Sequence record: DRR723986_13328
Length of the DNA stretch: 20,000 nucleotides
Direction: 5' to 3' (one strand)
A program made the position numbers and the translations under genes. How positions within the stretch are numbered: position 1 is the stretch's first letter; each line of letters begins with the position of its first letter. The notes under the pieces are model-generated. The model ran no database searches. It was given only the letters and a program-made list of their open reading frames with translations, and was not told where the DNA came from. Positions 854 through 16,356 of this stretch are shown piece after piece.

Positions 854-1780
854 ATGAAAAAAGTTTTACTAATTGCTGGTCTCCTTCCGCTTACATTGGG
901 AGCCCAAACAACAATTTTCGAAGAAAATTTTGATGCTTACACGGCTGGAAATTATGCTGGAAATGAGTCTCCTTACATGACAAGTTGGTCAGAAACGCCA
1001 GGAGGATTTGACGATTGTTTTATTTCTAATGCACAAGCTTCCAGTCCCTCTAATTCAATTGAAATAGTTGGTCAGTCTGGTCCAATGGATGCCTTATGTC
1101 AATTCCCTCAGTCTTATGATGCAGTTGGACACTACAGATTTTCAATGAAAATGTATATTCCAACTGGTTATGCTGGATATTTCAACTGTCAAGAAAGTAC
1201 CACTCCCGGTTTAGGATGGAAATGTGATGTGTTCTTTTCTATTGCTGGAACTGGATATTTATCTTCAAATGGAGATACAAGTTCAATAGAATTTACCTAT
1301 CCAAAAGATGCTTGGTTTGATGTTGTTGTTGAAGCTGATTTAACGAATGATCAAGGTGAGCTATTCATTTCTGGAACTTCTGAAGGGACATTTATGTGGT
1401 CTCCTGGGGTGACTGGTACTGAAACATTTAAAAGATGGGGTGGCGTGAATTATTACGCTTACGGACCAAATAATGAGCAATCGAATTATTTCGTGGATGA
1501 TTTGAAACTGGAGGATATTACAGATTACACAAATATAACTTCCAATTCTACTTTTGATTTTGCTGTATATCCCAATCCTTCAAACGGACAAATCGCCATT
1601 CAATGGGAGGATAACTCAGCTTATGATTTAATGGTAACAGATATTGCTGGAAAATTGGTTTACTCAGAAAATAATATTACCACTAACAGTATTTTTAAAT
1701 TAAATGCTGAAAAGGGAACTTACTTTGTTCAACTTTCTGATAACGAAAGTCGTATAATCAAGAAGATCATTATTGAGTAA
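854..1780 (+). CDS. Secreted protein with T9SS type A C-terminal sorting domain; N-terminal region possibly a beta-sandwich (lectin-like)
   Basis: Signal peptide MKKVLLIAGLLPLTLGA|Q. The CTD FAVYPNPSNGQI...VTDIAGKLV...GTYFVQL...IKKIIIE is typical of Por secretion tails. Confidence 0.9.
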   Translation: MKKVLLIAGLLPLTLGAQTTIFEENFDAYTAGNYAGNESPYMTSWSETPGGFDDCFISNAQASSPSNSIEIVGQSGPMDALCQFPQSYDAVGHYRFSMKMYIPTGYAGYFNCQESTTPGLGWKCDVFFSIAGTGYLSSNGDTSSIEFTYPKDAWFDVVVEADLTNDQGELFISGTSEGTFMWSPGVTGTETFKRWGGVNYYAYGPNNEQSNYFVDDLKLEDITDYTNITSNSTFDFAVYPNPSNGQIAIQWEDNSAYDLMVTDIAGKLVYSENNITTNSIFKLNAEKGTYFVQLSDNESRIIKKIIIE

Positions 1781-1843: not shown

Positions 1844-1871
1844 TAGGGGTAAGTTAATTCTTAATTGTCAT
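1844..1871 (+). promoter_or_regulatory. Putative ECF-sigma promoter, copy 1 (TAGGGGTA-N13-TTGTCAT)
   Basis: TAGGGGTA agttaattcttaa TTGTCAT, 19 nt before ATG 1891. Boxes and spacing are identical at 3239 and 9088. Confidence 0.8.
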
Positions 1872-1890: not shown

Positions 1891-2634
1891 ATGACAAAAA
1901 TGAAAACAACAAAATGGCTATTAATTTTTGCTTCAGCAGTGTTAATGTTAACCTCATGCAAAAAAAAAGGAGGAGTATTCTGTTATAGCGCAACTGGAGA
2001 TCAAGTAATAGAAACAAGAGATGTATCAAATTTTTCTTCGATTGATTTATCCATGGATGCAGATGTGTACTTTCAGCAATCTAACGAATATAGCGTTGAA
2101 GTGCATGCCAGTGAAAATTTACAGGATATCATACAGACAAAAGTTAAAGGAAATCGATTAAGCATCTCACTAAAGAACAAAAAGTGTTTAAAGGGAGATA
2201 GTGACGTAGAAGTTTATGTAACGGCTCCAGACCTCAGTAAATTATCTATTTCTGGAACAGGTACAGTTTATTCTTTAAGACAATTTAATTGTTCTAGTTT
2301 GGATGTGAATATATCAGGATCAGGAGAACTAGAATTTGATAGTTTAGCCTGTCAAGATTTCTCTGCAGACATTTCTGGATCCGGCGAAATTTATTTGATG
2401 GGTACTGGAACTTCTGATAAGCAAACTATCGATATTTCTGGTTCAGGTTGTTTTAAAGGGTTTGAGATGCCTACTTTGGAATCTAAAATTAATATCTCGG
2501 GTTCTGGTAATTGTGAGGTCAATGTTGTGAATTCTATAAACGCAAGGATTTCAGGTTCTGGAGAAGTAAGGTATAAAGGAAATCCTTCAATTGATTCTAA
2601 TATTTCCGGATCTGGTTCGATTAAAAAATACTAA
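1891..2634 (+). CDS. GIN-domain (DUF2807, adhesin-head-like) lipoprotein
   Basis: Lipobox LTS|C. N-terminal ETRDVSNFSSI...ENLQDII-x-TKVKGNRLSI motif and repeated ISGSG units ending SGSGEVRYKGNP. Alternative start at 1900. Confidence 0.9.
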   Translation: MTKMKTTKWLLIFASAVLMLTSCKKKGGVFCYSATGDQVIETRDVSNFSSIDLSMDADVYFQQSNEYSVEVHASENLQDIIQTKVKGNRLSISLKNKKCLKGDSDVEVYVTAPDLSKLSISGTGTVYSLRQFNCSSLDVNISGSGELEFDSLACQDFSADISGSGEIYLMGTGTSDKQTIDISGSGCFKGFEMPTLESKINISGSGNCEVNVVNSINARISGSGEVRYKGNPSIDSNISGSGSIKKY

Positions 2635-2683: not shown

Positions 2684-3241
2684 GTGAATCTGTTACAAGA
2701 ACCCATATCAATTAATCAGTTTGAAGAATTGTTCAAATCTGAGTATGAGAAATTATGTGCAGTTGCAAATCAGTATTTGGCTGACCTGGATGCTGCTGAA
2801 GAAACGGTTCAAGCCGTGTTCGTAAAGTTTTGGGAGAGCAGAATGGCCATAGAGGTAAAGCAATCATTTGCCGCTTACCTGTATACATCTGTTAAGAACA
2901 ATTGTTTGAATCAGTTAAAACATCTGAAGATAAAAGAGGCATACAAAGAGCATAACAAGAGAGAGATGGAATACGAGGAATCGAGAAATGAGCTTGATAG
3001 CTCAGCAGATGAACTTACTGAAAAAATTAAATCAGCCATTGATAAATTACCTGAGGGCCGAAAAAGAATTTTTATTCTAAGTAGATATGAAGGGTTGAAA
3101 TATAAAGAGATAGCTGAAAAATTAAATCTTAGCATAAAAACAGTAGAAAATCAGATGGGGAGTGCGTTAAAATTTTTAAAGTCTGAACTTGCTGAGTACG
3201 CAATCAGCTTGTTGCTGTTCATTTTTTTTCTGATCAGATAG
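2684..3241 (+). CDS. ECF RNA polymerase sigma-70 factor (FecI-like, Bacteroidota expansion type)
   Basis: Region 2 FEELFKSEYEKLC...AAEETVQAVFVKFWE...AYLYTSVKNNCLN. Region 4 IDKLPEGRKRIFILSRYEGLKYKEIAEKLNLSIKTVENQMGSALKFLK. Hydrophobic C-terminal tail; adjacent to FecR. Confidence 0.95.
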   Translation: MNLLQEPISINQFEELFKSEYEKLCAVANQYLADLDAAEETVQAVFVKFWESRMAIEVKQSFAAYLYTSVKNNCLNQLKHLKIKEAYKEHNKREMEYEESRNELDSSADELTEKIKSAIDKLPEGRKRIFILSRYEGLKYKEIAEKLNLSIKTVENQMGSALKFLKSELAEYAISLLLFIFFLIR

Positions 3242-3266
3242 GGGTATTTGGAAAGTTAATTGTCAT
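3239..3266 (+). promoter_or_regulatory. Putative ECF-sigma promoter, copy 2 (TAGGGGTA-N13-TTGTCAT)
   Basis: TAGGGGTA tttggaaagttaa TTGTCAT. The TAG is also the sigma stop codon; 11 nt before ATG 3278. Confidence 0.8.
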
Positions 3267-3277
3267 AAAAAAGGAAG

Positions 3278-4285
3278 ATGTCTGATAAGAACTACATAGA
3301 ATTCAATGAAGCCACCATAATGGCTTACATCAATGGCGAACTAAGCCATGAAGATATAGCTATGGTAGATCATTGGATAGGATTGTCTCAAGAAAATACA
3401 GATGAGTATGAGAGAATTAAATCCATATGGCTTGCTGCAAAAGAGGTGAAACCTCAGCCAGTTTCAGTTGATACTGATAAAGCCCTCAACAAAGTATTGA
3501 GTCAAATAAATCAACAAACTCAACTGAAAGAAATTCAACTTAAAACAAATTATAAAAGAATAGTTTTATCAGCGGCGGCAGTGATCATTTTGCTTTTTGG
3601 CGCAGTGACACTTATTAACTTCTTAAATAATGAGACTGTTAATCAGATAGAGCTAAGCGCTGATAATAAGATTCTCGAGGATCGATTATCAGATGGGACG
3701 ACCGTAAGTCTTAACAAAAACTCAATGCTGTCATACCCTGATAAATTTGGAGATAATGAACGCAGAGTTAAATTAACAGGTGAGGCCTTTTTTGATGTTG
3801 AACGAAACGAGCAAAAGCCATTTGTGATTGATCTTCACAATGATTTTTATGTCAAAGTTTTGGGAACTTCATTTAATATCAACGCAAATGAAGAGGACAC
3901 CATAACTGAGGTTTATGTTAAGACAGGCAAGGTTGAATTCGGCTCAGATGAGGACCAAGTTATTTTAGAGGCGGGAGAAAAAGGAGTGATGAATAACAAA
4001 ACCGGAAAAGTATCAAAAATCATAGTTGAAAACGAAGAGTTAAGAACGTTATATTGGAAAACTCAAGAATTGAATTTTGATCATATTTCCCTGGCTTCAA
4101 CTTTGGAGATTTTAGAACAAGTTTTTAATGTTGAGGTTTTGTTGTCCTGTCCCGAAAAAAGTAGTTCCCAAGTCGTTTCAAAACATCAACACGAATCAAT
4201 TGATGAAATACTGAATGTTATTGCATCTATGCATCATTTAACAGTAAATAAATCTGACCAGAAGTACACTTTGTCCTGTGATTAA
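3278..4285 (+). CDS. FecR-family anti-sigma factor
   Basis: N-terminal YINGELSHEDIAMVDHW anti-sigma helices and TM IVLSAAAVIILLFGAVTLI. FecR domain LSDGTTVSLNKNS...RRVKLTGEAFFDV...VLGTSFNI...VKTGKV, then C-terminal WKTQELNFDHISL domain. Confidence 0.95.
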   Translation: MSDKNYIEFNEATIMAYINGELSHEDIAMVDHWIGLSQENTDEYERIKSIWLAAKEVKPQPVSVDTDKALNKVLSQINQQTQLKEIQLKTNYKRIVLSAAAVIILLFGAVTLINFLNNETVNQIELSADNKILEDRLSDGTTVSLNKNSMLSYPDKFGDNERRVKLTGEAFFDVERNEQKPFVIDLHNDFYVKVLGTSFNINANEEDTITEVYVKTGKVEFGSDEDQVILEAGEKGVMNNKTGKVSKIIVENEELRTLYWKTQELNFDHISLASTLEILEQVFNVEVLLSCPEKSSSQVVSKHQHESIDEILNVIASMHHLTVNKSDQKYTLSCD

Positions 4286-6131
4286 AAAATACACACTCTT
4301 ATTTTTTATACTGTTTTGCGCTCATATGGGAGGTGCAAAATTTTTGCTTTTAGATAGGGTGATAACTATTGATATCCAAAAAACCGCAGTAAAAAAAATC
4401 TTGAACGTTATCGAAGAAAAAGGACAAGTTAAGTTTTCATATGACCCTGATTTGGTAGATGAAAATAAAATTGTAAGTCTGAGTGTTAAAGAGAAAACTA
4501 TCCGTTATGGATTATCCTTGATTTTTGACGGAACAATTAGATTTAAGGAAGTTGGAAGCCATATAGTTTTACTTCAAAATGAATCTAGAGAGGCCATTAA
4601 GGAAAGAAAAAAAGACAGAGACAATTACATTTTTACCGGTAAAATTTTCGACAAAAGAACCGGAAAACCGCTGGTAAATGCAAGTGTTTATGATGTTGAA
4701 GCCAGATTTGCATCTAAATCTGACGAAAACGGGTTTTACGAATTGATTATCCCGAAAGAAGAGCGGGTGAGGAGTTTGTATTTTAAAAAGAAAGACTATG
4801 AGGCTGTTGTTATTGTAATTGCTGCCGATAATCCTGATAATCTTCAAAATAACATTTCACTCGCACCTATTTTAAAAGAAGTCAGTAAAATTGAGCCTGC
4901 TACTGTTGAAAAAGTTCAAGTACCGATAGAAGAAAGGGCCTTGTCCGGAGCTCTAATTTCTGAAGACACATATATTCATTCTGAGAATTTAGATGGAATT
5001 GAAGAAATAAGGTTGGCACAGATTTCACTTGTACCATCAGTCGGGATCGGTTCGAACCTTAGTACAAACGGTTTAATAACTAACCGGGTCTCATTAAACA
5101 TTCTAGCTGGATACTCTAATGGCGTTAGAGGGGTTGAAGTAGGAGGGATTTTGAATATGACCAAAGGAGATGTTTGGGGTGCTCAAATTGCTGGAATTTC
5201 TAATTTAGTTGGAGGGGATGTGACCGGAGGGCAAGTCGCTGGAATTGCTAGCCTTATTCAGGGCAATTTTAATGGAGCACAAGTATCTGGTATTAGCGGC
5301 ATTGTAAAAAGGGATTTTTATGGTGTACAGGCAAGCGGCATTTCTTCAATCGTAAGGGGCCGATTTGAGGGGATTCAATTAAGTGGAATAAGCAATATCG
5401 CATACAAAAGTTCAAGAGGAATTCAGGTTGCTGGAATTTCAAATACCGTTTTTGATACTTTAATTGGAATTCAAGGTTCGGGTATTGTTAATTTTGCCTT
5501 ACACGGTACTAATTACGCCCAAATCTCCGGAATAGCTAATATAGCAGATTCGAGTAAGGGTGTGCAAATTAGTGGAATATTCAATCGTGCTAAAGTCAAT
5601 AGTGGATTTCAATTGGGATTAATTAATTGCAGCAAATCAAGCACGGGTATTGCTTTAGGTTTATTTAATTTTGTACGTGAGGGTTATCACAAAACAGAAT
5701 TGTCCGCAAATGAGATATTCCCAGTTAACTTGACCTTTAAAACGGGTTCTAAAAGACTCTATAATTCGTATCATTTTGGCTTGAGGTTTGGACAGCAATT
5801 GTACTATTCTGGAGGATTAGGCTTTGGAACTTATTTTGATTTAGCTAACAAAACCAAGCTAAGCATAGATCTAACTGGCGACTTAGTTTTTAAAGAATCC
5901 AATTCAAACGGTTTTGCACAATTGTATAAATTATCCACCACATTTGATTATCAGCTTGCTAAATGGCTAACAGTTTTTGGTGGTCCTTCTATCAGTATGA
6001 ACGTTATGCAATTCAAAGATGCAGAAGGGCTTTTTTCATCAGATATAGCTTTTAAACCCTTCTATTCAGAGCAAAATGCAGTGGCAGGCTTTCAAGGTTG
6101 GGTTGGGGGCCAACTCGGATTTAGGTTTTAA
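4278..6131 (+). CDS. Outer-membrane protein: STN domain + CarboxypepD_reg-like domain + about 12 Gly-rich 16-aa repeats (LA_2272-like) + small predicted C-terminal beta-barrel
   Basis: GTG start overlaps the FecR stop (8 nt). Signal peptide; STN-like LDRVITIDIQKTAVKKILNVIEEKGQVKFSYD...HIVL; CarboxypepD-like FTGKIFDKRTGKPLVNASVY...SDENGFYEL; G-x-Q-x-x-G-I-x-N repeats; amphipathic strands ending GGQLGFRF. Confidence 0.85.
   Translation: MIKKYTLLFFILFCAHMGGAKFLLLDRVITIDIQKTAVKKILNVIEEKGQVKFSYDPDLVDENKIVSLSVKEKTIRYGLSLIFDGTIRFKEVGSHIVLLQNESREAIKERKKDRDNYIFTGKIFDKRTGKPLVNASVYDVEARFASKSDENGFYELIIPKEERVRSLYFKKKDYEAVVIVIAADNPDNLQNNISLAPILKEVSKIEPATVEKVQVPIEERALSGALISEDTYIHSENLDGIEEIRLAQISLVPSVGIGSNLSTNGLITNRVSLNILAGYSNGVRGVEVGGILNMTKGDVWGAQIAGISNLVGGDVTGGQVAGIASLIQGNFNGAQVSGISGIVKRDFYGVQASGISSIVRGRFEGIQLSGISNIAYKSSRGIQVAGISNTVFDTLIGIQGSGIVNFALHGTNYAQISGIANIADSSKGVQISGIFNRAKVNSGFQLGLINCSKSSTGIALGLFNFVREGYHKTELSANEIFPVNLTFKTGSKRLYNSYHFGLRFGQQLYYSGGLGFGTYFDLANKTKLSIDLTGDLVFKESNSNGFAQLYKLSTTFDYQLAKWLTVFGGPSISMNVMQFKDAEGLFSSDIAFKPFYSEQNAVAGFQGWVGGQLGFRF
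5130..5685 (+). repeat. About 12 tandem repeats of ~16 aa / ~48 nt (G-x-Q-[IVL]-[AS]-G-I-x-N), predicted beta-helix
   Basis: Repeat cores GVEVGG, GAQIAG, GGQVAG, GAQVSG, GVQASG, GIQLSG, GIQVAG, GIQGSG, YAQISG, GVQISG, GFQLGL, GIALGL. Boundaries approximate. Confidence 0.85.
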
Positions 6132-6134
6132 ATC

Positions 6135-8981
6135 TCACTTAAGTAAAACTGCATGCCCCATAAATTCAAAAATTTGATCCGTTGCAGTTTCACCAAATTC
6201 CAAGGTCCAAATAAATACATTTGAGTTTTCAAGCTCATGGTTTAAATAGGTACCGTCCCATCCGATTAAAGGGTCATATGATTCGAAAATTAATTCACCC
6301 CAGCGATTGAAAATAGAGAAATGATACCGGTTGTGGTCGAGCCCAGAATAAAAAACAGGAATAAAAACAGGGTTTTTAAAATTTGGGGTAAATGCGTTCG
6401 GAACATAGAAAATTTGTTCTGTATTCACGATAAGATTTAAATAAGCTGTGTCTTTGCAATGCTCACTTGAAGCAATTAAATTGACTGTAATTCCTCCAGG
6501 ATTAACGTACAAGTGATTTGGTTCAAAATCTGTAGAAAATTGTCCATCACCAAAAATCCATTCCCAATTTATAGAATTTGATGAATTATTAACAAATTGA
6601 ACAGCCTCTTCTGTAGTAATTAGAGTATTGGAAGTAGTAAAACTTGCTTCGGGCTCAATGTAGATTTCTATTGTGTCAGAGGCATTAATCGTACATCCGT
6701 TTGAGTCAATAATTGTTAAATCAATTGAATAAATACCACTGTTATTGTAGTAATGTATAAAAGATGTTTGGTTAAACATGTGGCCATCTCCACTGTCCCA
6801 ATTTACAGAGATAAAATCTTCATTTCCCGATATGCCCACGATATTAAAATAAACCGGCTCATTGGGACATGCATCTTCTAAATTAATAGCGTATGATGAA
6901 GGGATGAAATATCCAACTGTAATACTGTCTCTATAAACTTGACAGGCGTTAGATTGTTCAACCCAATAAATTCCAGCTTGATCTACAAAATATTGATCTG
7001 AATTGCTGCCATCCTGCCAAACTGGATTGGATCCAGGGCTATTCACCATCAAATTTAAAGTTTCTCCAGGACACAATAGTGTATCATTGGTGAACGATTC
7101 AAGAATTGGGTCAATGAATTGAACATCTATAGTGTCTGAATATGTACAACTGTTGTCACTTACTGTCAGCCAGAATTGTCCACTGCTTTGTGCAGAAAGT
7201 GTTGGATTTGATGATAAATCACTCCATAGATAATTTGGATTTCCTGGGCTTGTCCCATCAATCACGAACGGCAAACCAGAACAAATAATTGTATCATTTC
7301 CTAAGTTGATGTCTGATAGAGTAGAAAAAGAGATGTGGATAGTGTCACTTACTTCGCAGTTATTAATATCTGTTATGGTCAACCATGGACTGCTGGTTGA
7401 GTTAACTGAAAGAGTAGGGTTTGTACTTAAGTCTGACCATAGATAATCAACTGCCCCCACAGTTGTACCATCTATAAGGATCGAATTGTTTATGCAAAGT
7501 GTCGTGTCATTACCCAAATTTAGAGCAAGTGGGCTGGTGAAGTCCACTTGAATTGTATCATAGTATGCACAGAAATTATCAGAAACTGTAACGGAATAAG
7601 TTCCTGTACTGCTTAAGGAAATAGATGCGTTAGTATTCATGTTATTCCATAAATAACTTGTTGCACCTACAGTTGTGGCATCAATAAGAAAAGATTGTCC
7701 CGCACATATCAAAGTGTCTGGACCTAAGTCCACGTTTAGAGTCGTGGAATAAGCAATTGCAATTGTATCTGTAAATACACAGCTATTATTGTCTTCAACG
7801 GTTACCCAGACATCTCCGGCAGAACTTGCGTTGTAAGTTGGAAGAGTGGTTAAATCAGACCATAAAAAGTTGTTTGCTCCTGAATTGCTTAAGTCTAGTA
7901 ATAGAGTTGAATTTGGACATAAAGTGGTGTCATTGCCCAGTGTGAAGTTTGGCAAGTTGTGCACCCCAAAGTAAAAATGATAGGTTGTGTAAGGGCAGCC
8001 TCCAGCGCTAATCTCGCAATAATAATCTCCGGTATCGCTCAGACTCACATTATTAATAGGTAGAAAATAAGATGATCCAACTGGTGCTCCTTGAAAGGTC
8101 CAATTATATGTGTATGTAAAAGAAGTATCGACAAGCGTTAAAGCCGTATCACTGTCTAGACAAGAAAAAACTGTGTCAGAATTTGAAGATGTAGAGCACC
8201 CTATGTGTGACCAATTAGATTGACAACCTGTCAATCCAAAATCATTGAGCACACCGTCAAATGAATTTGAACTTGAATCAACAAGAGTCGTTTGCCCCGC
8301 ATTATTGGCGCCCACGAATCCATTGTCCGCATAATAAAGAGCTAAGAGATCTGGTTCATTTCCGGATAGATTTGAATTCATGAATTGACTGATTTCGGCA
8401 GCTGTACGTGTGTCACCCCAAACGCGTATATCCCGTAAAAAACCGTTATAGAATTGAGAGCTATTGAGATTTGTCCCTGTACCGATATCCCATTCTTGTC
8501 CCAAACTATAGTTGTCTGCCGCTATAAGAACAAAATCGGCATTATGCGTACCCACCAATATGCCATCAATATAAACGCTTCCTAAGTTTCCGTCTCTTGA
8601 ATAAGCAATGTGATGACAAACATTGTCCCCAATTACTTGAGTGCTCATGAAGTCACTCTGTGTCCCCCAACTGCCTTGATCATAAATCATAAGATGACCA
8701 GTCTGTGTAGTGTTTCCTCCCAAAATTATTAGAAGTCTATTCCCGCCTGTTGGAGTATTTACCGAAAACAAAGATGTCCGAATGCTACTTGTTTGATCAT
8801 TTAAATCTCCTTTCATCCAAAATTCAAATGTAAAATTCTGAGATCCAGCAAGCGTATCACTTAATGAATTCATATTCACATAATCATCAATTCCATCAAA
8901 ATGTAAACTATTCGCAGGTGCTTGAGCAGACAATTCAAATGACATGAAAGTCATGAAAAGAATAAGAAGTGTTTTTTTCAT
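6135..8981 (-). CDS. T9SS type B (gliding-motility CTD/CHU_C) surface protein: LamG-like domain + Ig-like repeats + two PKD domains
   Basis: Likely start is MKKTLLILF at 8981, not 9017 (signal peptide; promoter at 8991-9022). LamG LHFDGIDDYV...FTFEFW...HHIAYS...YIDG...IRVW; PKD WDSGDG and WIFGDG; CTD YVPNAFTPN...IFNRWGELIFES...WDGTY. Confidence 0.9.
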   Translation of the reverse strand: MKKTLLILFMTFMSFELSAQAPANSLHFDGIDDYVNMNSLSDTLAGSQNFTFEFWMKGDLNDQTSSIRTSLFSVNTPTGGNRLLIILGGNTTQTGHLMIYDQGSWGTQSDFMSTQVIGDNVCHHIAYSRDGNLGSVYIDGILVGTHNADFVLIAADNYSLGQEWDIGTGTNLNSSQFYNGFLRDIRVWGDTRTAAEISQFMNSNLSGNEPDLLALYYADNGFVGANNAGQTTLVDSSSNSFDGVLNDFGLTGCQSNWSHIGCSTSSNSDTVFSCLDSDTALTLVDTSFTYTYNWTFQGAPVGSSYFLPINNVSLSDTGDYYCEISAGGCPYTTYHFYFGVHNLPNFTLGNDTTLCPNSTLLLDLSNSGANNFLWSDLTTLPTYNASSAGDVWVTVEDNNSCVFTDTIAIAYSTTLNVDLGPDTLICAGQSFLIDATTVGATSYLWNNMNTNASISLSSTGTYSVTVSDNFCAYYDTIQVDFTSPLALNLGNDTTLCINNSILIDGTTVGAVDYLWSDLSTNPTLSVNSTSSPWLTITDINNCEVSDTIHISFSTLSDINLGNDTIICSGLPFVIDGTSPGNPNYLWSDLSSNPTLSAQSSGQFWLTVSDNSCTYSDTIDVQFIDPILESFTNDTLLCPGETLNLMVNSPGSNPVWQDGSNSDQYFVDQAGIYWVEQSNACQVYRDSITVGYFIPSSYAINLEDACPNEPVYFNIVGISGNEDFISVNWDSGDGHMFNQTSFIHYYNNSGIYSIDLTIIDSNGCTINASDTIEIYIEPEASFTTSNTLITTEEAVQFVNNSSNSINWEWIFGDGQFSTDFEPNHLYVNPGGITVNLIASSEHCKDTAYLNLIVNTEQIFYVPNAFTPNFKNPVFIPVFYSGLDHNRYHFSIFNRWGELIFESYDPLIGWDGTYLNHELENSNVFIWTLEFGETATDQIFEFMGHAVLLK
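6890..7950 (-). repeat. Five ~70-aa Ig-like repeats (LGNDTTLC...YLWSD...G-x-x-WVTV...C...DTI)
   Basis: Repeat heads LGNDTTLC (~7940), LGPDTLIC (~7728), LGNDTTLC (~7518), LGNDTIIC (~7305), FTNDTLLC (~7094); period about 210 nt. Confidence 0.85.
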
Positions 8982-8990
8982 TGGGTCCAA

Positions 8991-9022
8991 CAAAAGTATG
9001 CTTTTTCCATGTACCATCCAAA
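8991..9022 (-). promoter_or_regulatory. Bacteroidota housekeeping promoter for the LamG/PKD gene
   Basis: Minus strand: TTTG (9022-9019), 20 nt, then TACTTTTG (8998-8991); a full consensus match. Confidence 0.8.
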
Positions 9023-9087
9023 ATACTGTGACTGATGGTAATTCGTGGACTTATGGATTAATTTCATTTTTTTATTTGCCATCCCGA

Positions 9088-9115
9088 TAGGGGTAAACAC
9101 TTTTTTATTTGTCAT
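9088..9115 (+). promoter_or_regulatory. Putative ECF-sigma promoter, copy 3 (TAGGGGTA-N13-TTGTCAT)
   Basis: TAGGGGTA aacacttttttat TTGTCAT, 25 nt before ATG 9141. Confidence 0.8.
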
Positions 9116-9140
9116 CAATGTGAATAAAGCATTATAACAA

Positions 9141-11501
9141 ATGAAAACAAAAAATCTTATCCTAATCCTGGGACTTTTAATGGCGAATTTTTCAATTGGC
9201 CAAGAGTTAAAACAAACCTTAAGAGGAACAATTATCGATTTTGATTCTAAGGTTCCATTAATCGGGGCAAAAGTTATTGTAATAGGTACAGACCCTTTAC
9301 AAGGAGCAGTTACTGATGTTAATGGCGATTTTAAAATTGAGCAAGTGAATGTTGGGAGGGTTGCTATTCAAATTACAAGTACGGGCTATAAACCCATTTC
9401 ATTGCCTTCGGTTTTAATTGAATCAGGGAAAGAAAAAATTCTCAATGTCGAAATGACTGAAGATATTAAAACCCTAGGCGCAATTGAAGTAAAGGCTCAG
9501 AAAAATAAGTCAGAGTCCATTAATAAAATGGCAACCGTCAGTGCTAAAACTTTCACTGTCGAAGAAACTAATAGATATGCGGGTTCACTTAATGATCCGG
9601 CACGAATGGTTTCTGGATTTGCAGGGGTGACCGGTGATGCAGAAGGAGATAATGATATTGTTGTGAGAGGGAATTCCCCACGTGGAATTTTATGGCGACT
9701 AGAAGGAATTGATATTCCAAATCCTAATCATTTTTCAGATAACGGGGCGACAGGTGGCCCTATTAATGCACTCAACGGGTCAGTTTTGGCAAATTCTGAT
9801 TTCTTTTCAGGTGCTTTCGCGCCAGAATATGGGAATGCCTTATCTGGAGTGTTTGATGTCAAAATGAGAACTGGAAATAATGAAAAACGTGAGTATTCTT
9901 TTTCTGCAGGTGTGATAGGTTTAGACGGAACATTAGAAGGACCATTTTCTAAAAATTATCGAGGTTCTTATATGGTGAATTATCGCTATTCTTCAATCGC
10001 CCTTTTAGATAAAGCTGGAATTCTAGATTTTGATGGGATTCCAATTTATCAAGATGCAGCTTTTAAATTCAATTTTCCAACCAAAAAAACAGGAACTTTT
10101 ACATTGATTGGACTCGGAGGTATGTCCAAAATAGACCAAACAGATCAAAACGATTCAACAGGTCAAGTCTATGGAAGATATGATTTCAGAGCAAATTTAG
10201 GGGTGGTAGGATTGAAACACACAATAATTGCAAGTCCAAAGCTTTACTTCAAGAGTTTCATCTCAGCATCAACTCAATACAATGGTGGAGAAGGACATTT
10301 TTTAAATCAAGATAGTGTCCTGTTTTTCGCTGAACAAGAGGGAAATACAGATAATCAGTTGAAAGCTCAAACAATTGCGAACTATAAATTGAATAAGAAG
10401 AATATTTTTCAATTGGGCGCCACCTATACGCATTTGAATTATCACTTCTTTTATGAAGATGATTATAATGACGAAGATGGAATCATGACACGGCATACAA
10501 ACTCGAAAGGAAATGCCGATATGCTTCAATCTTTTTTAAGCTGGAAGTATAGAATTACAAATGATCTGACTGTGGTGTCTGGATTACATTATACGCACTA
10601 TATGCTCAATGATAATTCGAAGATTGAACCGCGAATTGGTATGAAATGGCAAGTGCATCCAAGGCATAGCTTTTCTGCAGGTTTTGGAATGCATTCAAAA
10701 CTTGAGTCTCCTTCAGTATACTTATATAATGAGTTACAAGCAGACGGATCTTATCTATATCCCAATCGTGAATTAGATTTGACTAAAAGTACACATTACG
10801 TGGTTGGTTACGATTTTAGAGTTTCTGAAAATATGCGTTTCAAAACAGAACTCTATTATCAGCAACTTTCTAATATTCCTGTAGCAAAAGATACCTCTGC
10901 AGATTTCGGACATTTCAGTTTTGTGAATTGGTCATCTGGAGTTCCTGATTTCGAATTGGTCAATGAAGGGACTGGACGAAATTATGGTGCAGAAATTACA
11001 CTTGAAAGGTTCTTTGAAAACAACTACTATTTCTTAGTTACCGGATCAATTTATAAATCACAATATACAGGGTCTGACGGTATCCAAAGAGATTCAAGAT
11101 ATGATGCAAATTTCGCTGCGAATATTCTGGGAGGAAAAGAATTTAAATTCGGGAAGAAAAAGAATTTTAACAAGACGTTTGGTATCAATACAAAGGTTTC
11201 ACTTCTTGGAGGAAATCGATTTACACCAATTGATTTAGTAGCCTCACAAGATGCTGGTTATACTGTTCGTGATTGGTCAAATCCATGGGGACAGAAAGGT
11301 GAAAATGTGTTCTTTATCAATCTTGGCTTGACATACAGATGCGATATGAAACGGGCCAGCCATTCTTTTAAAATAGATATTCAGAATTTGACGAATAATC
11401 AGGCGGTGGTTTCTGAATACTATAACGGTAGAACGGGCAAGGTCGAAACAGATACTCAACTTTCCTTTATCCCAAACATTATTTACACGATTAAATTTTA
11501 G
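9141..11501 (+). CDS. TonB-dependent receptor (CarboxypepD_reg-like N-domain + plug + barrel; no STN; non-SusC)
   Basis: Signal peptide directly followed by LRGTIIDFDSKVPLIGAKV...TDVNGDFKI. Plug DPARMVSGFAGV...IVVRGNSPRGILWRLEGI...GAFAPEYGNALSGVFDV; barrel GTGRNYGAEITLER; C-terminal F. Confidence 0.93.
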   Translation: MKTKNLILILGLLMANFSIGQELKQTLRGTIIDFDSKVPLIGAKVIVIGTDPLQGAVTDVNGDFKIEQVNVGRVAIQITSTGYKPISLPSVLIESGKEKILNVEMTEDIKTLGAIEVKAQKNKSESINKMATVSAKTFTVEETNRYAGSLNDPARMVSGFAGVTGDAEGDNDIVVRGNSPRGILWRLEGIDIPNPNHFSDNGATGGPINALNGSVLANSDFFSGAFAPEYGNALSGVFDVKMRTGNNEKREYSFSAGVIGLDGTLEGPFSKNYRGSYMVNYRYSSIALLDKAGILDFDGIPIYQDAAFKFNFPTKKTGTFTLIGLGGMSKIDQTDQNDSTGQVYGRYDFRANLGVVGLKHTIIASPKLYFKSFISASTQYNGGEGHFLNQDSVLFFAEQEGNTDNQLKAQTIANYKLNKKNIFQLGATYTHLNYHFFYEDDYNDEDGIMTRHTNSKGNADMLQSFLSWKYRITNDLTVVSGLHYTHYMLNDNSKIEPRIGMKWQVHPRHSFSAGFGMHSKLESPSVYLYNELQADGSYLYPNRELDLTKSTHYVVGYDFRVSENMRFKTELYYQQLSNIPVAKDTSADFGHFSFVNWSSGVPDFELVNEGTGRNYGAEITLERFFENNYYFLVTGSIYKSQYTGSDGIQRDSRYDANFAANILGGKEFKFGKKKNFNKTFGINTKVSLLGGNRFTPIDLVASQDAGYTVRDWSNPWGQKGENVFFINLGLTYRCDMKRASHSFKIDIQNLTNNQAVVSEYYNGRTGKVETDTQLSFIPNIIYTIKF

Positions 11502-11505
11502 TAAA

Positions 11506-12666
11506 ATGAAAAAAGCATTAGTTTTAACACTTTTAAGTTGTATATGCAACTTACTATATTCTCAAAATGATACACTTAATTCTAGAATAACTCAAGTTTC
11601 GTTTTTTTATCCCATTGGAACCAATGGAATTGAGTCAACAAAATACACCAATAACTTTTCGTTTAACGTCCTTTATGGCCTCAACGGAGGTTTAAACGGT
11701 GTAGAATTTGGAGGACTCGTCAATTCAAATATTGGACATGTTCAAGGTGCTCAGTTCGCCGGAATTGCAAATATAAATGCGTCCGCTGCGAATGGAGTGA
11801 TAGCGGCAGGAATAGGAAATTTTATTGCCGACTCCTCCAACTCTATATGTTTGGCTGGTATTGCCAATGTAACAGGTTCAAACGTCCTCGGTTTGCAACT
11901 AGCCGGAATCACCAATACGGTAAATGGTGATGTTTCAGGTGGTCAAATAGCCGGGATTACCAACGCAAGTCATGGAGATTTCAAAGGGATTCAAGCAGCA
12001 GGAATTGCCAATGTTAATACCGGTAATTTTAAAGGTGCACAAGTAGCTGGTATTTCTAATTTTAATGGCGGTGATCTGCAAGGAGCTCAAATTGGTTTGA
12101 TAAATAGGGCGAAAAAAGTAAAGGGATTTCAGTTAGGACTGATAAATATCTCAAACGAATTTGAAAAAGGAGTACCACTCGGGTTAATCTCATTTGTTAG
12201 AAAAGGATATCATGCGATTGAATTATCAGGCGGTGAAACTGTGTATGGAAATCTAAACTTAAAATTAGGTGTAGATAAATTATATACCATCTATAAACTT
12301 GGATTCGCTTCACATGGAAGCAGTCAGTTTTTAACTTACGGCTTCGGTGTTGGAACGAAGGTAACGTTGTCAGAAAAATTGAATCTTTCAATTGATGGAT
12401 CTGGGAATCATGTAGTCCATCAAAACTTAAATCCAAATCTTGATTTGTTGGGTAAATTAGATCTTAATTTTAGATATGATTTAGGTGATCACTTTGACCT
12501 GTTTGCGGGACCTTCATTCAATGTTTATTTATCTCAACATGATTTAGAGACTGAAAAATCAGCCCTTAACGTTCCTTATAGCTTGTTCACACATAATTGG
12601 GGAAATGGAGAAGGTCAGACATACATGTGGATAGGAGCAAATGCCGGACTAAGCGTGAAGTTTTAA
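11506..12666 (+). CDS. Gly-rich repeat (LA_2272-like) outer-membrane protein; paralogue of 4278-6131 lacking the STN and CarboxypepD domains
   Basis: Signal peptide; QVSFFYPIGTNG...NNFSFNVLYG; about 11 G-x-Q-x-A-G-I-x-N repeats; GLISFVRKGYH...FAGPSFNV...WIGANAGLSVKF. Starts 4 nt after the TBDR stop. Confidence 0.85.
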   Translation: MKKALVLTLLSCICNLLYSQNDTLNSRITQVSFFYPIGTNGIESTKYTNNFSFNVLYGLNGGLNGVEFGGLVNSNIGHVQGAQFAGIANINASAANGVIAAGIGNFIADSSNSICLAGIANVTGSNVLGLQLAGITNTVNGDVSGGQIAGITNASHGDFKGIQAAGIANVNTGNFKGAQVAGISNFNGGDLQGAQIGLINRAKKVKGFQLGLINISNEFEKGVPLGLISFVRKGYHAIELSGGETVYGNLNLKLGVDKLYTIYKLGFASHGSSQFLTYGFGVGTKVTLSEKLNLSIDGSGNHVVHQNLNPNLDLLGKLDLNFRYDLGDHFDLFAGPSFNVYLSQHDLETEKSALNVPYSLFTHNWGNGEGQTYMWIGANAGLSVKF

Positions 12667-13391
12667 ATCAAATTCATTTCTTCTAGAAATGCTCTTCTTT
12701 TTCTTTGGGATATGACGATTTCGTCATTATTATCCATTAACACTTTCGAATCTGAACGGATAAACGAATTCACCTTATTTAAGTTAATGAGGTGACTGTG
12801 ATGCACTCTGAAAAAGTTAAGCTGTGAGAGCATACTTTCAAATTCTTTCAAGTTTTTTGAGGATAAAATTGCTTTTCCTTTTTCTAGAACACATAAGGTA
12901 TACTTACCATCTGCTTCGCATCTTACAAGATTATTTATATTGATGGTTTCAAATCCTGTACTGGTGGATACTGAAATCAAATTTGCTCCAGCTGCCATTT
13001 CAGCTTTTATTTTTGATAAAAGAGCTCCAGGAGGTTTAGATTTTTCTTCCACCTTTTTTACTGCACGAATAAAGTCATCAATATTGATAGGTTTTAACAA
13101 GTAATCGACAGCATTTACCTTGAAAGCATCTAATGCATAATGATTATAGGCTGTAATAAAAATGATGTGAAAATTTATGCCTTTAACCTCTTCTAGCAGG
13201 TCAAAGGCATTACCGTCTCCCAACTCAATATCTAAAAAAACCAGTTCAGGCTTTTTTGCTTTTATTTCTGCAATACCAGACTCCACAGAATTTGCTTCTC
13301 CAATTACTTCTAGTTTGGGAGCATATTCTTTAATGAATTTAGACATTACTGCCCTATTCAATTTCGTATCATCAACGATTAAAGTCTTCAT
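12663..13391 (-). CDS. LytTR-family response regulator
   Basis: Receiver TLIVDD...ELVFLDIEL...IIFITAYNHYALDAFKVNAVDYLLKP; LytTR domain FFRVHHSHLINL...ISQRKR. ATG at 13391 preferred over TTG at 13400; overlaps the kinase 3' end. Confidence 0.95.
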   Translation of the reverse strand: MKTLIVDDTKLNRAVMSKFIKEYAPKLEVIGEANSVESGIAEIKAKKPELVFLDIELGDGNAFDLLEEVKGINFHIIFITAYNHYALDAFKVNAVDYLLKPINIDDFIRAVKKVEEKSKPPGALLSKIKAEMAAGANLISVSTSTGFETININNLVRCEADGKYTLCVLEKGKAILSSKNLKEFESMLSQLNFFRVHHSHLINLNKVNSFIRSDSKVLMDNNDEIVISQRKRRAFLEEMNLI

Positions 13392-16356
13392 AATCTTCAA
13401 TAATAGGAAAATAAAGTATTATTTCAGTACCTTTTGATTCTCCTTTTGAGTTTTTTAAGTTATTAGTTTCTACTTGAATATCTAAATCATTCAATAAATT
13501 TAAGATGTCTATTCTTTGATTGGTGATATCAATTCCTCTTGACTTATGAGTGCGTTTATTGGCGGTTTTTGTCGCCAATGATTTTTCATATCCAATTCCG
13601 TTATCTTGAATTCTCAATACTACTTGGGTTTCAGTTTTTGATACATTAATTTTCAAAGAACCCTTTCTGTTTTTCAAAGGTTTGATGCCATGTTTAATCG
13701 CATTCTCTATAAACGTGTGGGTGACCATTGAAGGGATAAACAAGGTTTCGGTATTAACGTTTTCATCCACTGTTAACTCAAACTCAAAAGGCTCATCAAA
13801 CTGAAGCCCTTCCAATGGAACATAAATTTTAAACATGTCTAAATCTTCCTTTAAAGAGATCAGTCTTTTTTGGGCATGTTCTAGAATAATTCGGAGTAAG
13901 CGTGAAAATTGAGATAAATATTCATTGGCACGTTCCGATTCACCCAATAAGTAAAGAGATTGTATTGAACTTAAGCAATTAAATACAAAATGCGGATTCA
14001 TTTGCGATTGCAAGGCCCTTAACTCAAGACTCTTTAACTCTCCAGACATTTTCTTAATTTGAGCGCGACCATAACGTCTTCCTCGCCAAATGGAAAAAAT
14101 GATAAAAAATATCAGAGCAGTCGTAGCAAAAACTAAGGTATGTTTGAAACTATCTTTCTCCCAGAAATGGACTTCTACTTCAAAATCAATGGTCGCTTCT
14201 GCCTCTGTACCTACTTGTTTAATTCTCAATTTATAATTCCCTAAAGGCAGTTCTGAAAAAGTCATTAATCGAGATTTACCAACGTCAAACCAACGCTCAT
14301 CCAAACCTTCAATTTTATACAAGTATCGTAAATGTTGGGTTTGATAAAAATTAGGATGTGAAAACTCAAATTGTATTTGATTCTGATCCGGCCCAACAAC
14401 TATAGGCTCATCAATTGAAACTCTTTTATTGTCAATTAAAACATTGTCAATTACAATCTTATTTTCATTAGTAAGGCCTTTTATTTTCATTGGGTCAACA
14501 CAGGCCGGTCCAGATATCATTGAGAACCAAATTTTCCCATCATATGATTTAAATCCTTTGTTTTGAGTTCTTGAGTTTCCTTCTGAATTTGCTAAACCAT
14601 CTGCCGAGGTATAATGTTGGCTAGAAAAACCAGGGCTTTGATTGTTGACATAAGCAATTAGTTCCTTTCTACTAACTCGGTAAATTCCCTGATTGCTGTT
14701 CATCCAAAAATAACCCATGTCATCCTCTATGATACACCAAACGTTTTTATTTAGACGACCATCATTTGTAGGTAATTGAACCAAACCAAATCCATCAAAA
14801 AAACAAAGCCCATATTGAGATGTGCCAATCCAATAGTTGCGATCTTCATCTTGATATATTGACCTAATATCATCTGTAGGCAAGCCTTTTTCCCTTGTGA
14901 AAATTTGATTGATTTGGTTTTCTTTGAAATGAACTATCCCCTCGTTTGTACAAGCTAGAATATGATGGTCTCTATCCTCATAGAAGGAAAATATTTTACC
15001 TAAAGATTTACTTCCTTCTATTAAATGAAATTCGTCATTTTCTAATAAGAAAGTGCCCTCATTTGTGCCTAAATAAACCTGACCTGAGGCTGATGTGAAA
15101 AGTGAAAATGTTATTTTTCCATTTACGTCATCAGAAAAAGGTAAAAATTGGACACGGTTTGTCTTGCGATTTAATTTATGGACTCCTGTATTATCTCCTC
15201 CCAACCATAGATTTCCAAATTTGTCTTCAGTCATAGTCCAGAGACAAGTATTAGTTTGAACACTTTCAATTGAATTGTCCGGTTTAATACGAAGCATTTC
15301 ATCACATTTTTGATCGAACCAAATAATTGAATCTTGACTTTGGTAAACCATGAATCCCGATTTGTTATCCGTATGATAAACATCAACGGCATTGGAGAAA
15401 ATTTTAGGGTATAACATAAACAAACCTGTCGAATTTGTACCTATCCATATTACGCCTGATGAACTAATTGATATGTCCTCAATTCGCCCAAGATTTAAAT
15501 TAGTGTTATTCGAGAACGTTTGTTTTGTTCCATTGATGTAGATTACAATTTGATCTTGATAAGTTAAAACGGTCGTTTGGTTTTTATCATGATAAATGGA
15601 TTTAATATCTTTATTTTCTTGACCCTTGTACCAATCAAATTGTGTGTTTGGTTCAATTTCAACCAATGTTTCGTTCTCATAATTGTAATAGGAAGTATTA
15701 CTGCCGTTGTTTGAGCTAAAAATGCCATCATTTAAAGATTTCAACTTGTTTTTATAAAATTTAAAATCTAATCGGTTTTCTTTTATGGAAAACAGACTGT
15801 CATCACTTAATAACAATAATTCATCCTTGTAAGAAATTGGTTGATAAGGCCTGTTTTCAATGAGATTTAAGGATTTGACCCAAACGTTTTCTTCAAGACG
15901 ATATAAATTTTCCCCCGCAATTGCATAAATTCCGGAATTTGTGTTTTTAAATTGAACATTTCGTCCAATATCCTTAAGGTACAGCTGAGGTATGTTATTT
16001 TCAATCTTTATTATTTCATTCTCCGTAGCCACCCATATCGTTCCGCTGGAATCTTTGGCCATGTTTAGAATAAATGATGAGCTTAAGCCAGTGATATTAC
16101 TTTCGTCAAAAGTTCGAAATTCATATCCATCAAATCGAACCAACCCATTAAAAGTAGCTAACCATAAAAACCCCTCGTCACTTTCAATTATTTGACGGAT
16201 GTTGTTTTGGGGCAATCCGTTTTCAGTGGTCCACTGATATAAAGAATATTGATTACTAGGTGTTTCTACGCGTATAGGTAAATTCTGTCCTATTCCAATA
16301 TTATGAAAGAGATTTAGAATTGTGAATAACACCAAGAAACAGCGAGTTAATTTCAT
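13372..16356 (-). CDS. Sensor histidine kinase: periplasmic Reg_prop beta-propeller + Y_Y_Y domain + TM + LytS-type kinase core
   Basis: GLPQNNIRQIIESDEGFLWLATFNGLVRFDG repeats; YLYKIEGLDERW...LPLGNYKLRIK; TM; ALQSQMNPHFVFNCL (H box), ENAIKHG (N box), IQDNGIG (G1). Start at 16356 (MKLTR) or 16395. Confidence 0.95.
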   Translation of the reverse strand: MKLTRCFLVLFTILNLFHNIGIGQNLPIRVETPSNQYSLYQWTTENGLPQNNIRQIIESDEGFLWLATFNGLVRFDGYEFRTFDESNITGLSSSFILNMAKDSSGTIWVATENEIIKIENNIPQLYLKDIGRNVQFKNTNSGIYAIAGENLYRLEENVWVKSLNLIENRPYQPISYKDELLLLSDDSLFSIKENRLDFKFYKNKLKSLNDGIFSSNNGSNTSYYNYENETLVEIEPNTQFDWYKGQENKDIKSIYHDKNQTTVLTYQDQIVIYINGTKQTFSNNTNLNLGRIEDISISSSGVIWIGTNSTGLFMLYPKIFSNAVDVYHTDNKSGFMVYQSQDSIIWFDQKCDEMLRIKPDNSIESVQTNTCLWTMTEDKFGNLWLGGDNTGVHKLNRKTNRVQFLPFSDDVNGKITFSLFTSASGQVYLGTNEGTFLLENDEFHLIEGSKSLGKIFSFYEDRDHHILACTNEGIVHFKENQINQIFTREKGLPTDDIRSIYQDEDRNYWIGTSQYGLCFFDGFGLVQLPTNDGRLNKNVWCIIEDDMGYFWMNSNQGIYRVSRKELIAYVNNQSPGFSSQHYTSADGLANSEGNSRTQNKGFKSYDGKIWFSMISGPACVDPMKIKGLTNENKIVIDNVLIDNKRVSIDEPIVVGPDQNQIQFEFSHPNFYQTQHLRYLYKIEGLDERWFDVGKSRLMTFSELPLGNYKLRIKQVGTEAEATIDFEVEVHFWEKDSFKHTLVFATTALIFFIIFSIWRGRRYGRAQIKKMSGELKSLELRALQSQMNPHFVFNCLSSIQSLYLLGESERANEYLSQFSRLLRIILEHAQKRLISLKEDLDMFKIYVPLEGLQFDEPFEFELTVDENVNTETLFIPSMVTHTFIENAIKHGIKPLKNRKGSLKINVSKTETQVVLRIQDNGIGYEKSLATKTANKRTHKSRGIDITNQRIDILNLLNDLDIQVETNNLKNSKGESKGTEIILYFPIIEDYEDFNR

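Follow-up and report, generated by a model that had tools for sequence, protein, structure and literature searches.

In the usual teaching, cell-surface signalling (CSS) belongs to TonB-dependent transporters (TBDTs): one protein both transports and signals, and both activities depend on TonB. The DNA analysed here, a 20,000-nt stretch of sequence record DRR723986_13328 (the window) from a marine Bacteroidota genome, contains a gene cluster in which the signalling head of such transporters, the STN domain, is found on a protein that is unable to transport, and in which the transporter apparently under control is without that head. The STN protein (P0001) is encoded directly behind genes for a FecI-like sigma factor and a FecR-type anti-sigma factor. 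We take it to be a non-transporting STN partner of FecR, with a regulon comprising a DUF2807 lipoprotein gene, the fecR-STN gene pair and a TBDT gene; leaving aside what triggers the system, we would put the probability of this reading at roughly 0.6.

The canonical CSS systems (FecA/FecR/FecI, FoxA/FoxR/FoxI and PupB/PupR/PupI, as well as operons of the same bacterial family as the window that are described below) have the same gene order as the present locus. They also have in common with it a FecI-like extracytoplasmic function (ECF) sigma factor, an anti-sigma factor with FecR and FecR_C domains, an outer-membrane (OM) partner with an N-terminal STN domain, and a sigma factor that targets a TBDT gene along with its own operon, the last of which is suggested here by a promoter motif. 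However, the STN carrier at this locus consists of a beta-roll and an eight-stranded barrel, with no plug and no 22-strand barrel, the regulated TBDT is without STN, and a Toastrack-type lipoprotein is the most constant target.

Two further systems resemble the locus in part. In the VreA-VreI-VreR (PUMA3) system of Pseudomonas aeruginosa, VreA is reported to have an STN-like domain and no TBDT barrel and to be encoded with an ECF sigma factor and a FecR-type regulator, and its authors raised a possible coupling to unknown OM partners (PMC2729926). VreA is described as a mostly soluble periplasmic protein of 238 residues whose second domain was modelled as TolA/TonB-C-like (PMC2729926). Unlike VreA, P0001 has its own OM barrel anchor, a domain termed NTE (N-terminal extension) and a beta-roll and comes from another phylum, the likeness considered here being that of STN; no TolA/TonB-like domain surfaced in P0001 in Pfam or fold searches, which could miss one. 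The Dma anti-sigma factors of Bacteroides are closer in taxonomy, being also from Bacteroidota, and are described as having an eight-stranded OM barrel tied to an ECF anti-sigma domain across the periplasm, no transporter, and an output that concerns the envelope (vesiculation) (PMC10927553). Unlike the present system, they are single polypeptides with a disordered tether, have no FecR, STN or NTE, and work with an ECF21 sigma factor (PMC10927553). Here there are two separate open reading frames (ORFs), a structured beta-roll rod, a FecI-like sigma factor and a presumed link between STN and FecR_C, so that the Dma arrangement of anti-sigma domain and OM barrel joined in one polypeptide by a disordered tether was not found.

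The body of P0001 has relatives of its own. Among them are LA_2272-type repeat proteins (NF047436), whose cut-off is passed by the repeat region of the paralogue P0003 described below, and stand-alone proteins of ~390-540 aa that have the same beta-roll and barrel and are common in Bacteroidota. They differ from P0001 in lacking the STN/NTE head and, at the one distant locus viewed, an adjoining sigma/anti-sigma pair. The stand-alone atlas clusters are all annotated 'hypothetical protein', and the papers on LA2272 are reportedly genome-wide predictions.

No STN protein combining a beta-roll with a small barrel came up in our literature search, which took in the ECF reclassification paper (PMC7826278) in its main text, the supplements with per-ECF-group neighbourhoods lying outside the search. 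As far as our searches reach, the architecture, the regulon and the paralogue described here are new. A preliminary description of this DNA, made from the sequence alone, knew of no characterised example; the statement stands in that no paper on this architecture was found, and is too strong in view of VreA (PMC2729926) and Dma1 (PMC10927553). Given these two precedents, signalling across the envelope without a transporter is not in itself a new idea.

The STN protein and its presumed FecR partner

The cluster is made up of the following genes, with all ORF positions referring to the 20,000-nt window:

1891-2634, plus strand: gene for a DUF2807/Toastrack beta-helix lipoprotein (P0125, 247 aa; PF10988 159.4 bits, DUF4097 22 bits; lipobox LTSC in the sequence LMLTSC|KKKGG)
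2684-3241, plus strand: ECF sigma factor gene of the Bacteroidetes FecI-like type (TIGR02985 172.8 bits, cut-off 126.4; Sigma70_r2 and r4_2)
3278-4285, plus strand: FecR-type anti-sigma factor gene (P0124, 335 aa; PF04773 56.6 bits, PF16344 (FecR_C) 31.9 bits)
4278-6131, plus strand: STN protein gene (P0001, 617 aa; GTG start, overlapping fecR by 8 nt)
9141-11501, plus strand: TBDT-like gene (P0002, 786 aa; NTE, Plug and a ~22-strand barrel, without STN)
11506-12666, plus strand: gene for a beta-roll and barrel paralogue (P0003, 386 aa), starting 4 nt past the TBDT stop codon

The positions given for these genes in the preliminary description (sigma, FecR, STN protein, TBDT and 11506-12666) were all confirmed. 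P0001 itself divides into the following parts:

4278-4352, plus strand: start and signal peptide (helix at residues 2-16 in the model; signal peptide judged by eye from the sequence)
4353-4577, plus strand: STN domain, residues ~26-100 (PF07660 in 40 of 41 family members; Foldseek match to PilQ N0, 4ar0)
4620-4883, plus strand: NTE, an Ig-like CarboxypepD_reg domain, residues 115-202 (PF13715 in 41 of 41; match to 9hfj)
4884-5003, plus strand: linker, residues 203-242 (disordered at 204-214, followed by a conserved segment)
5004-5672, plus strand: beta-roll/beta-solenoid of 16-residue repeats, residues 243-465 (match to 3p4g, repeat register)
5673-6131, plus strand: eight-stranded OM barrel, residues 466-617, ending LGFRF, with the stop codon (DSSP, fold matches)

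Searched on its own, P0001 scored 24.0 bits with STN at residues 52-86 (cut-off 28.4) and 30.1 bits with CarbopepD_reg_2 at residues 120-196 (cut-off 32.2), both below the Pfam thresholds. A word-indexed search, in which 7999 candidates were scored, gave 554 relatives at E <=0.001, and among the matches listed 114 of 120 covered at least 85% of the query. When 41 relatives with 32-82% identity to P0001 were aligned, STN was matched in 40 (best E 5.1e-10) and CarbopepD_reg_2 in every one, and none of the 41 matched a Plug or TonB barrel model. On these family profiles the assignment of STN and CarbopepD_reg_2 domains to the P0001 family is solid.

The AlphaFold2 model of P0001, built on the 41-relative alignment, has a mean pLDDT (predicted local distance difference test) of 85.9. 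Residues ~28-100 take an STN/N0-like fold (4ar0, Foldseek E 1.7e-3), and residues 115-202 superimpose on the NTE of SusC (9hfj, Z 11.9, root-mean-square deviation (rmsd) 2.1, 80/80 residues; VIA-align), the STN/NTE head being modelled at pLDDT 76-88. Confidence falls below 50 at the start of the linker (residues 204-214), beyond which lies a conserved segment with the consensus PIE-R--SG-L-S-E---H-ENL, in which N237 is invariant across the family alignment. Residues 253-495 match a beta-solenoid (3p4g, Z 19.1, rmsd 2.0, 208 residues), and the solenoid also resembles TPS domains and autotransporter passengers (Z 12-15). Its repeat unit is strictly 16 residues long, G-x-Q-x-[AS]-G-I-x-N-x3-G-x3, with nine units in register by regular expression and ~13 coils by DSSP; NF047436 (LA_2272_repeat) scores 23 bits on P0001, under its cut-off of 25, and does not place the protein in that family. 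A search of the PDB with the P0001 family profile found the NTE only (9hfj E 3.5e-5; 6ytc E 7.7e-4).

Residues 466-617 form an eight-stranded OM barrel in the model, with best matches to 6x9z (Z 13.7), OprF-N (4rlc, 13.3) and NspA (1p4t, 13.2) and further matches at Z 10-12 to OmpA, OmpW, PagL and OprH (structures including 2lhf, 2f1t, 2erv and 2ge4). The strands by DSSP are 470-478, 483-490, 495-503, 509-521, 526-539, 546-561, 564-577 and 604-616. Eight antiparallel strands and a C-terminal Phe are those of the OmpA-like fold class, a likeness of fold only, and no sequence family was matched by the barrel (466-617). The turns on the side of the N- and C-termini have 2-4 residues, and the loops on the opposite side have 4, 5, 6 and 26 residues, both being estimates from strand limits. 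Barrels of this kind usually have an even number of strands and short turns on the side of the termini, which lie in the periplasm. Because the strand number is even and the N/C-side turns are short, we infer from the model that the beta-roll, linker, NTE and STN of P0001 are periplasmic.

Much of this had been read from the letters beforehand. The FecR-coupled gene had been described as STN, CarboxypepD, repeats and a barrel ending in Phe, with which the family Pfam matches and the AlphaFold2 and fold searches agree; the count of 'about 12' Gly repeats was a fair one beside nine units or ~13 coils; the C-terminus of about 8 strands became an eight-stranded barrel in the AlphaFold check (fold matches Z 10-13.7), even-stranded as had been supposed, and with standard topology it would make beta-roll, NTE and STN periplasmic. 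The claim that plug and 22-strand barrel are missing is borne out by the 0/41 Plug and TonB barrel matches.

Canonical sigma-FecR-TBDT operons exist in sister genomes, and in 6/6 loci the third gene (847-885 aa) encodes STN, NTE, plug and barrel and stands directly downstream of its own sigma-FecR pair. When the P0001 family was compared with these six transducers by hhalign, the match reached 99.5% probability (E 9.6e-23) and ran from P0001 residues 6-201 on transducer residues 5-190, with none beyond. Because of this profile-profile match over residues 6-201, the head of P0001 is shown, at the level of sequence profiles, to be a homologue of the transducer head, and within the operon P0001 stands in the position of the transducer. 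For SusC-type transducers the NTE is reported to be N-terminal to STN (PMC7782687); in P0001, and likewise in this bacterial family's canonical TBDTs, STN precedes NTE. A MAFFT alignment against the canonical TBDTs had suggested a retained TonB box or plug stub at P0001 196-260, which was dropped since hhalign significance ends at 201. F53 and Y55 are invariant in the P0001 family, and the STN/NTE head is retained in every full-length relative, down to ~27% identity.

On the side of the anti-sigma factor, the FecR and FecR_C scores of P0124 both exceed the Pfam cut-offs. The protein has an N-terminal cytoplasmic part, one hydrophobic helix (~94-116), the FecR domain and FecR_C, with G196-T197 invariant in 21 sequences. 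The locus thus has the FecI-like sigma factor, the anti-sigma factor with FecR and FecR_C, and the STN-bearing OM partner of the FecI/FecR systems, whereas the STN carrier as a TonB-dependent transporter, with TonB box, plug and 22-strand barrel, was not found.

A one-to-one pairing of the two genes is seen in G005, a 99% complete genome on one contig from the genus of the nearest genome. It has a single STN match at E <=0.01 and a single FecR_C match, located in adjacent ORFs (622 aa and 341 aa). With these matches single and adjacent, there is therefore no conventional STN-TBDT in G005 for this FecR, a result limited by the poor sensitivity of the Pfam STN model on the P0001 family; control of FecR by a conventional STN-TBDT elsewhere, which the preliminary description had named as a refutation, thus fails in this genome.

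A homologue of the STN gene in the nearest genome, G001, has 98.5% DNA identity to the window and one indel, by which it reads as 397-aa and 253-aa frames with a TAA in between (locus L009, contig C24). A recorded 371-aa protein (P0010) is identical to the first 56% of P0001. The split frame may reflect either a genuine truncation or a fault in the assembly.

The transporter, the paralogue and the promoter motif

P0002 has a signal peptide, an NTE (PF13620, 48 bits), a Plug and a ~22-strand barrel. Its Plug match of 20.2 bits spans profile positions 6-107 of 107 and lies below the cut-off of 23.9, and two orthologues score 23.5 and 24.8 bits. The model has a mean pLDDT of 66 (14 close sequences) with the plug unmodelled (pLDDT <30), and TBDTs were the only proteins among the matches listed by Foldseek (best E 5.8e-17); a PDB sequence search with P0002 gave nothing useful. 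Plug and 22-strand barrel make P0002 a TBDT, with a Plug score below the cut-off, and the N-terminal STN of a transducer is missing. The earlier claim that the TBDT sharing the promoter motif lacks STN was upheld, in that no STN match was obtained in P0002 even at E <=5 and the mature protein begins directly at the NTE. Relative genomes have 3-8 members of this TBDT family.

The gene behind the TBDT encodes a protein, P0003, with 37% identity over 340 aa to P0001 residues 245-578 (BLASTP, E 7e-52), and it passes the NF047436 LA_2272_repeat cut-off (30.8 vs 25 bits). Because of this identity and score, P0003 is by sequence the beta-roll and barrel of P0001 without STN, NTE or conserved linker. 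Its paralogy to the C-terminal two thirds of the STN protein had gone unmentioned in the preliminary description. In a tree of 48 sequences (a quick maximum-likelihood search only, midpoint rooted), the family's 14 paralogues cluster in a single clade (SH-aLRT 99), and no body of the P0001 type falls with its own genome's paralogue. Since the two are not intermixed, the duplication is old and predates the family, and a single origin of the STN-head fusion is compatible with the tree. Across the phylum there are beta-roll-barrel-only ORFs of ~420-540 aa, in one family (f17) in 56 of 61 sampled genomes. The stand-alone proteins of that family (~420-540 aa; L061-L063) have an extra N-terminal stretch of ~100 aa.

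Three intergenic regions of the cluster carry copies of one motif:

1845-1871, plus strand: first copy of the promoter motif (AGGGGTA-N13-TTGTCAT), with the DUF2807 gene 20 nt downstream
3240-3266, plus strand: second copy, 12 nt upstream of fecR and overlapping the stop codon of the sigma gene
9089-9115, plus strand: third copy, 26 nt upstream of the TBDT-like gene

The motif was derived by reading these regions, and relatives were searched with TAGGGGTA-N14-TGTC. The shared promoter motif of the preliminary description proved real: the window has three exact matches to AGGGGTA-N13-TTGTCAT against 0.23 expected even with 2 mismatches. Its shape, G-rich in the upstream element and with GTC in the downstream one, is what we take to be that of an ECF promoter. 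From its position and apparent autoregulation we infer that the sigma factor of the operon reads TAGGGGTA-N14-TGTC. Terminator-like hairpins bracket the DUF2807 gene (1804-1829 and 2641-2664), and directly upstream of the sigma gene is the sequence TAtcTTTG; TAnnTTTG is the -7 consensus.

The TBDT gene is preceded, in 9066-9116, by two copies of the direct repeat TTTTTTATTTG[C/T]CATC, 33 nt apart. The second TTTTTTATTTG copy contains the TTGTCAT of the promoter, and the first is just upstream of the GGGGTA element. The direct repeat TTATTTGYCATC, which lies upstream of this gene, was considered as a shared motif and rejected, its 9 matches (2 mismatches) being non-significant against 7.8 expected.

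Conservation of the cluster and its proposed regulon

Related loci and genomes were chosen around the nearest genome, G001. When 101 sampled genomes of its family were searched with the P0001 family model, 28 gave a match, one of which (G075) was matched only via the STN-NTE head of a 975-aa ORF, leaving 27/101 genomes and up to 14 of 29 genera, a tally that includes G075. Phylum-wide, 81 of 401 sampled genomes matched at E <=1e-30, and the full-length STN-headed form was found in 17 of the 401, all in the class or order of the nearest genome.

Stretches of 15-20 kb were fetched around 20 matched loci of one family (L033-L052). The genes for sigma, FecR and STN protein are contiguous and co-directional in all 20, and sigma and FecR stand directly upstream of the STN gene in seven of eight loci from other families of the class; the arrangement is a conserved one. 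DUF2807 is present in 19 of the 20 (absent in L048) and a TBDT in 14. Thirteen have a separate paralogue, ten of them directly after the TBDT and three (L036, L038, L045) directly after the STN gene with no TBDT present.

Two cluster layouts recur. Type A has the order DUF2807-sigma-FecR-STN protein-(TBDT)-paralogue. Type B has sigma-FecR-STN protein-DUF2807-(TBDT), with no paralogue and the motif before sigma rather than fecR. DUF2807 lies downstream of the STN gene in L039, L047 and L049-L052, and L048 is type B without DUF2807. In the tree, type A and type B STN proteins occupy separate branches. In the G005 cluster (L043) there is an extra FecR-like ORF upstream of DUF2807 (3427-4206, 259 aa, no FecR_C match) and a second, distant ECF sigma-like ORF between the STN and TBDT genes (8619-9155, 178 aa).

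The motif is retained in 18 of the 20 related loci, with none in L045 and L047, and is present in three loci from other families. It stands upstream of the DUF2807 gene in 15 of the 19 loci having one, directly upstream of ten of the 14 TBDT genes, upstream of the paralogue in two of the three loci where this directly follows the STN gene, and upstream of sigma in 5/20 and fecR in 3/20. In L039, L049 and L052 the TBDT gene lies ~100 nt behind a motif-driven DUF2807 gene. Where the best TBDT orthologue is unlinked, in G052 and G072, the motif is directly upstream of it; in G085 the best orthologue is without the motif and the cluster is likewise motif-free. The six canonical CSS operons have no motif.

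Genome-wide, the motif was counted against a reversed control:

G005 3 vs 1; G089 3 vs 3; G064 2 vs 1; G072 4 vs 0
G085 0 vs 0; G044 2 vs 0; G041 5 vs 0
G037 2 vs 0; G009 3 vs 0; G065 2 vs 0

The ten genomes thus have 0-5 sites each, and the control 0-3. Outside the clusters, sites lie ahead of OMP-like (outer-membrane protein-like) proteins of 277, 191 and 217 aa, of another NTE-TBDT, of a FecR-like gene and of a second DUF2807 lipoprotein. A further site is found before an epimerase, where it may be a chance occurrence, and behind three others no ORF starts within the 300-400 nt scanned downstream.

Other genes of the window surround or interrupt the cluster:

854-1780, plus strand: 308-aa protein with a Por_Secre_tail (type IX) C-terminus, upstream of the cluster
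6135-9017, minus strand: LamG, PKD and CHU_C gene (960 aa, type IX secretion tail), between the STN gene and the TBDT promoter
12663-16395, minus strand: LytTR response regulator (245 aa) and 1007-aa Reg_prop/Y_Y_Y histidine kinase
16695-20000, plus strand: long ORF (>1100 aa) running off the window end

The LytTR gene overlaps the end of the histidine kinase gene, and the pair converges on the paralogue gene 11506-12666. The 6135-9017 gene points towards the STN gene, from which 3 nt separate it. In two metagenome runs there are DNA contigs that connect 6130 to 9074, omitting this gene, and in several relatives the STN and TBDT genes are ~30-150 nt apart. It looks like a strain-specific insertion outside the module.

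Metatranscriptome contigs from one library (174-268 nt, 95-100% identical) lie on the DUF2807, sigma and fecR genes and on the 5' parts of the STN and TBDT genes. They are a weak hint of expression of the module genes, and such contigs cannot show starts, strands or co-transcription. Positions 6152-8748 are uncovered, a kind of gap that carries no information on expression.

Possible mechanism and competing explanations

In the mechanism that we propose, the eight-stranded barrel would anchor the STN protein in the OM, and a beta-roll of ~13 turns, the linker, the NTE and an STN tip would extend into the periplasm. In the resting state the tip would most likely dock on FecR_C of the co-translated anti-sigma factor and so hold FecR, by analogy with FoxA/FoxR; in the Fox system without signal, the signalling domain is reported to bind the anti-sigma factor's C-domain and to shield it from proteolysis (PMC11637429). 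Once FecR is inactivated, the sigma factor would transcribe from TAGGGGTA-N14-TGTC promoters, and its targets would be the DUF2807/Toastrack lipoprotein, fecR with the STN protein, and the STN-less NTE-TBDT with the beta-roll-barrel paralogue.

As to the trigger, the STN protein may sit beside the regulated TBDT by means of its beta-roll and barrel, as the STN-less paralogue would, and report the ligand or TonB state of the TBDT to FecR. This split transducer is slightly favoured over an autonomous sensor, and we hold it tentatively, at a little under even odds. The main target of the sigma factor is a TBDT without precisely the STN borne by the third gene of the operon, and the body of the STN protein is paralogous to the gene directly after that TBDT in ten of the 14 loci that have one.

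Several observations weigh against a FecR partner with a TBDT in its regulon. The STN and CarbopepD_reg_2 scores of the window protein itself are under the Pfam cut-offs, no TonB box was recognised in the P0001 sequence (hhalign homology to TBDTs stopping at residue 201), and the assignment of the motif to this sigma factor is an indirect one. Six of the 20 related loci are without a TBDT and seven (L039, L047-L052) without a paralogue, and the DUF2807 lipoprotein, not the TBDT, is the most constant member of the regulon. In G044 (99% complete) and G064 the sole sites genome-wide are those before DUF2807 and sigma, and the system there therefore seems to run without a regulated TBDT. Nor is the beta-roll-barrel fold generally a TBDT accessory, because the stand-alone gene of L061 has PagL-like, cyclophilin (PPIase) and MsrB genes for neighbours and is not beside a TBDT (one locus).

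A rival reading is that the STN protein is an autonomous sensor of envelope state, a rigid tether between OM and FecR in which loss of the STN-FecR contact is itself the signal. The contact might be broken when the periplasm widens, when blebs form, when the barrel fails to assemble or when the rod is damaged; the output would remodel the envelope, no transporter would take part in sensing, and the system would be a two-polypeptide analogue of the Dma anti-sigmas. The core of sigma, FecR and STN protein is found in 20/20 loci and DUF2807 in 19/20, against 14/20 for the TBDT. The genomes G044, G037 and G065 have only two cluster sites genome-wide, G044 and G064 have no motif-driven TBDT, and the recognisable targets are all envelope proteins (lipoproteins, small OMPs, TBDTs). 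DUF2807 falls in the Toastrack domain, which is reported to be tied to PSP/Lia envelope-stress systems (PMC11237479), and Dma1 of B. thetaiotaomicron is described as coupling an eight-stranded OM barrel to an anti-sigma domain and as controlling vesiculation (PMC10927553). An external ligand site on the STN protein would also be unlikely on the model, because only short loops and one 26-residue loop face outward. However, an envelope-stress sigma factor would hardly be expected to have a TBDT as its main target, yet the motif is kept when the TBDT is unlinked; the paralogy between the body of the STN protein and the TBDT-coupled gene is left unexplained; and the NTE domain and conserved linker are given no role. 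We regard an autonomous sensor as somewhat unlikely.

A head that no longer signals would be a different matter: P0001 would then be a structural OM/periplasmic member of the regulon, its head a relic of fusion, and FecR would sense alone. The sub-threshold Pfam scores of STN and NTE agree with this, and the motif before fecR would make the STN gene a sigma target. Such a relic is improbable, however, given that the head persists in every full-length relative, with STN in 40 of 41 and both F53 and Y55 invariant, that it is modelled with good pLDDT, that the gene has the operon slot of canonical transducers, and that the sole STN and sole FecR_C matches of G005 are neighbours. That FecR is governed by a conventional STN-TBDT encoded elsewhere, with the adjacent STN protein as decoy or competitor, is scarcely credible: canonical STN-NTE-TBDTs do occur in sister genomes and overproduced free signalling domains are reported to inhibit CSS in Pseudomonas (PMC11637429), yet six of six canonical TBDTs have their own upstream sigma-FecR pair without the motif, and G005 has no second STN match at E <=0.01 (with a Pfam model that is weak on this family).

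A FecR-coupled, non-transporting STN protein would have consequences that depend on its trigger, in a module that is compact and has a sharply defined promoter with few sites per genome. If the STN protein relays for the TBDT, the locus would be a natural separation of ligand uptake from signal relay, showing how STN senses a partner in trans. If it acts alone, it would be the FecR-linked equivalent of the Dma tethers and might serve to sense the integrity or geometry of the envelope. More broadly, and with the odds somewhat against it, STN heads may be portable: across a class of Bacteroidota a small beta-roll/eight-strand-barrel protein may have taken over the transducer head, either as a signalling subunit in its own right or as a rigid ruler across the periplasm, by which FecR would be coupled to the state of an STN-less transporter or of the OM, with the STN-less paralogue as its silent counterpart and the Toastrack lipoprotein as the constant output. 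If so, it would be a third trans-envelope signalling architecture, beside TBDT transducers and Dma factors.

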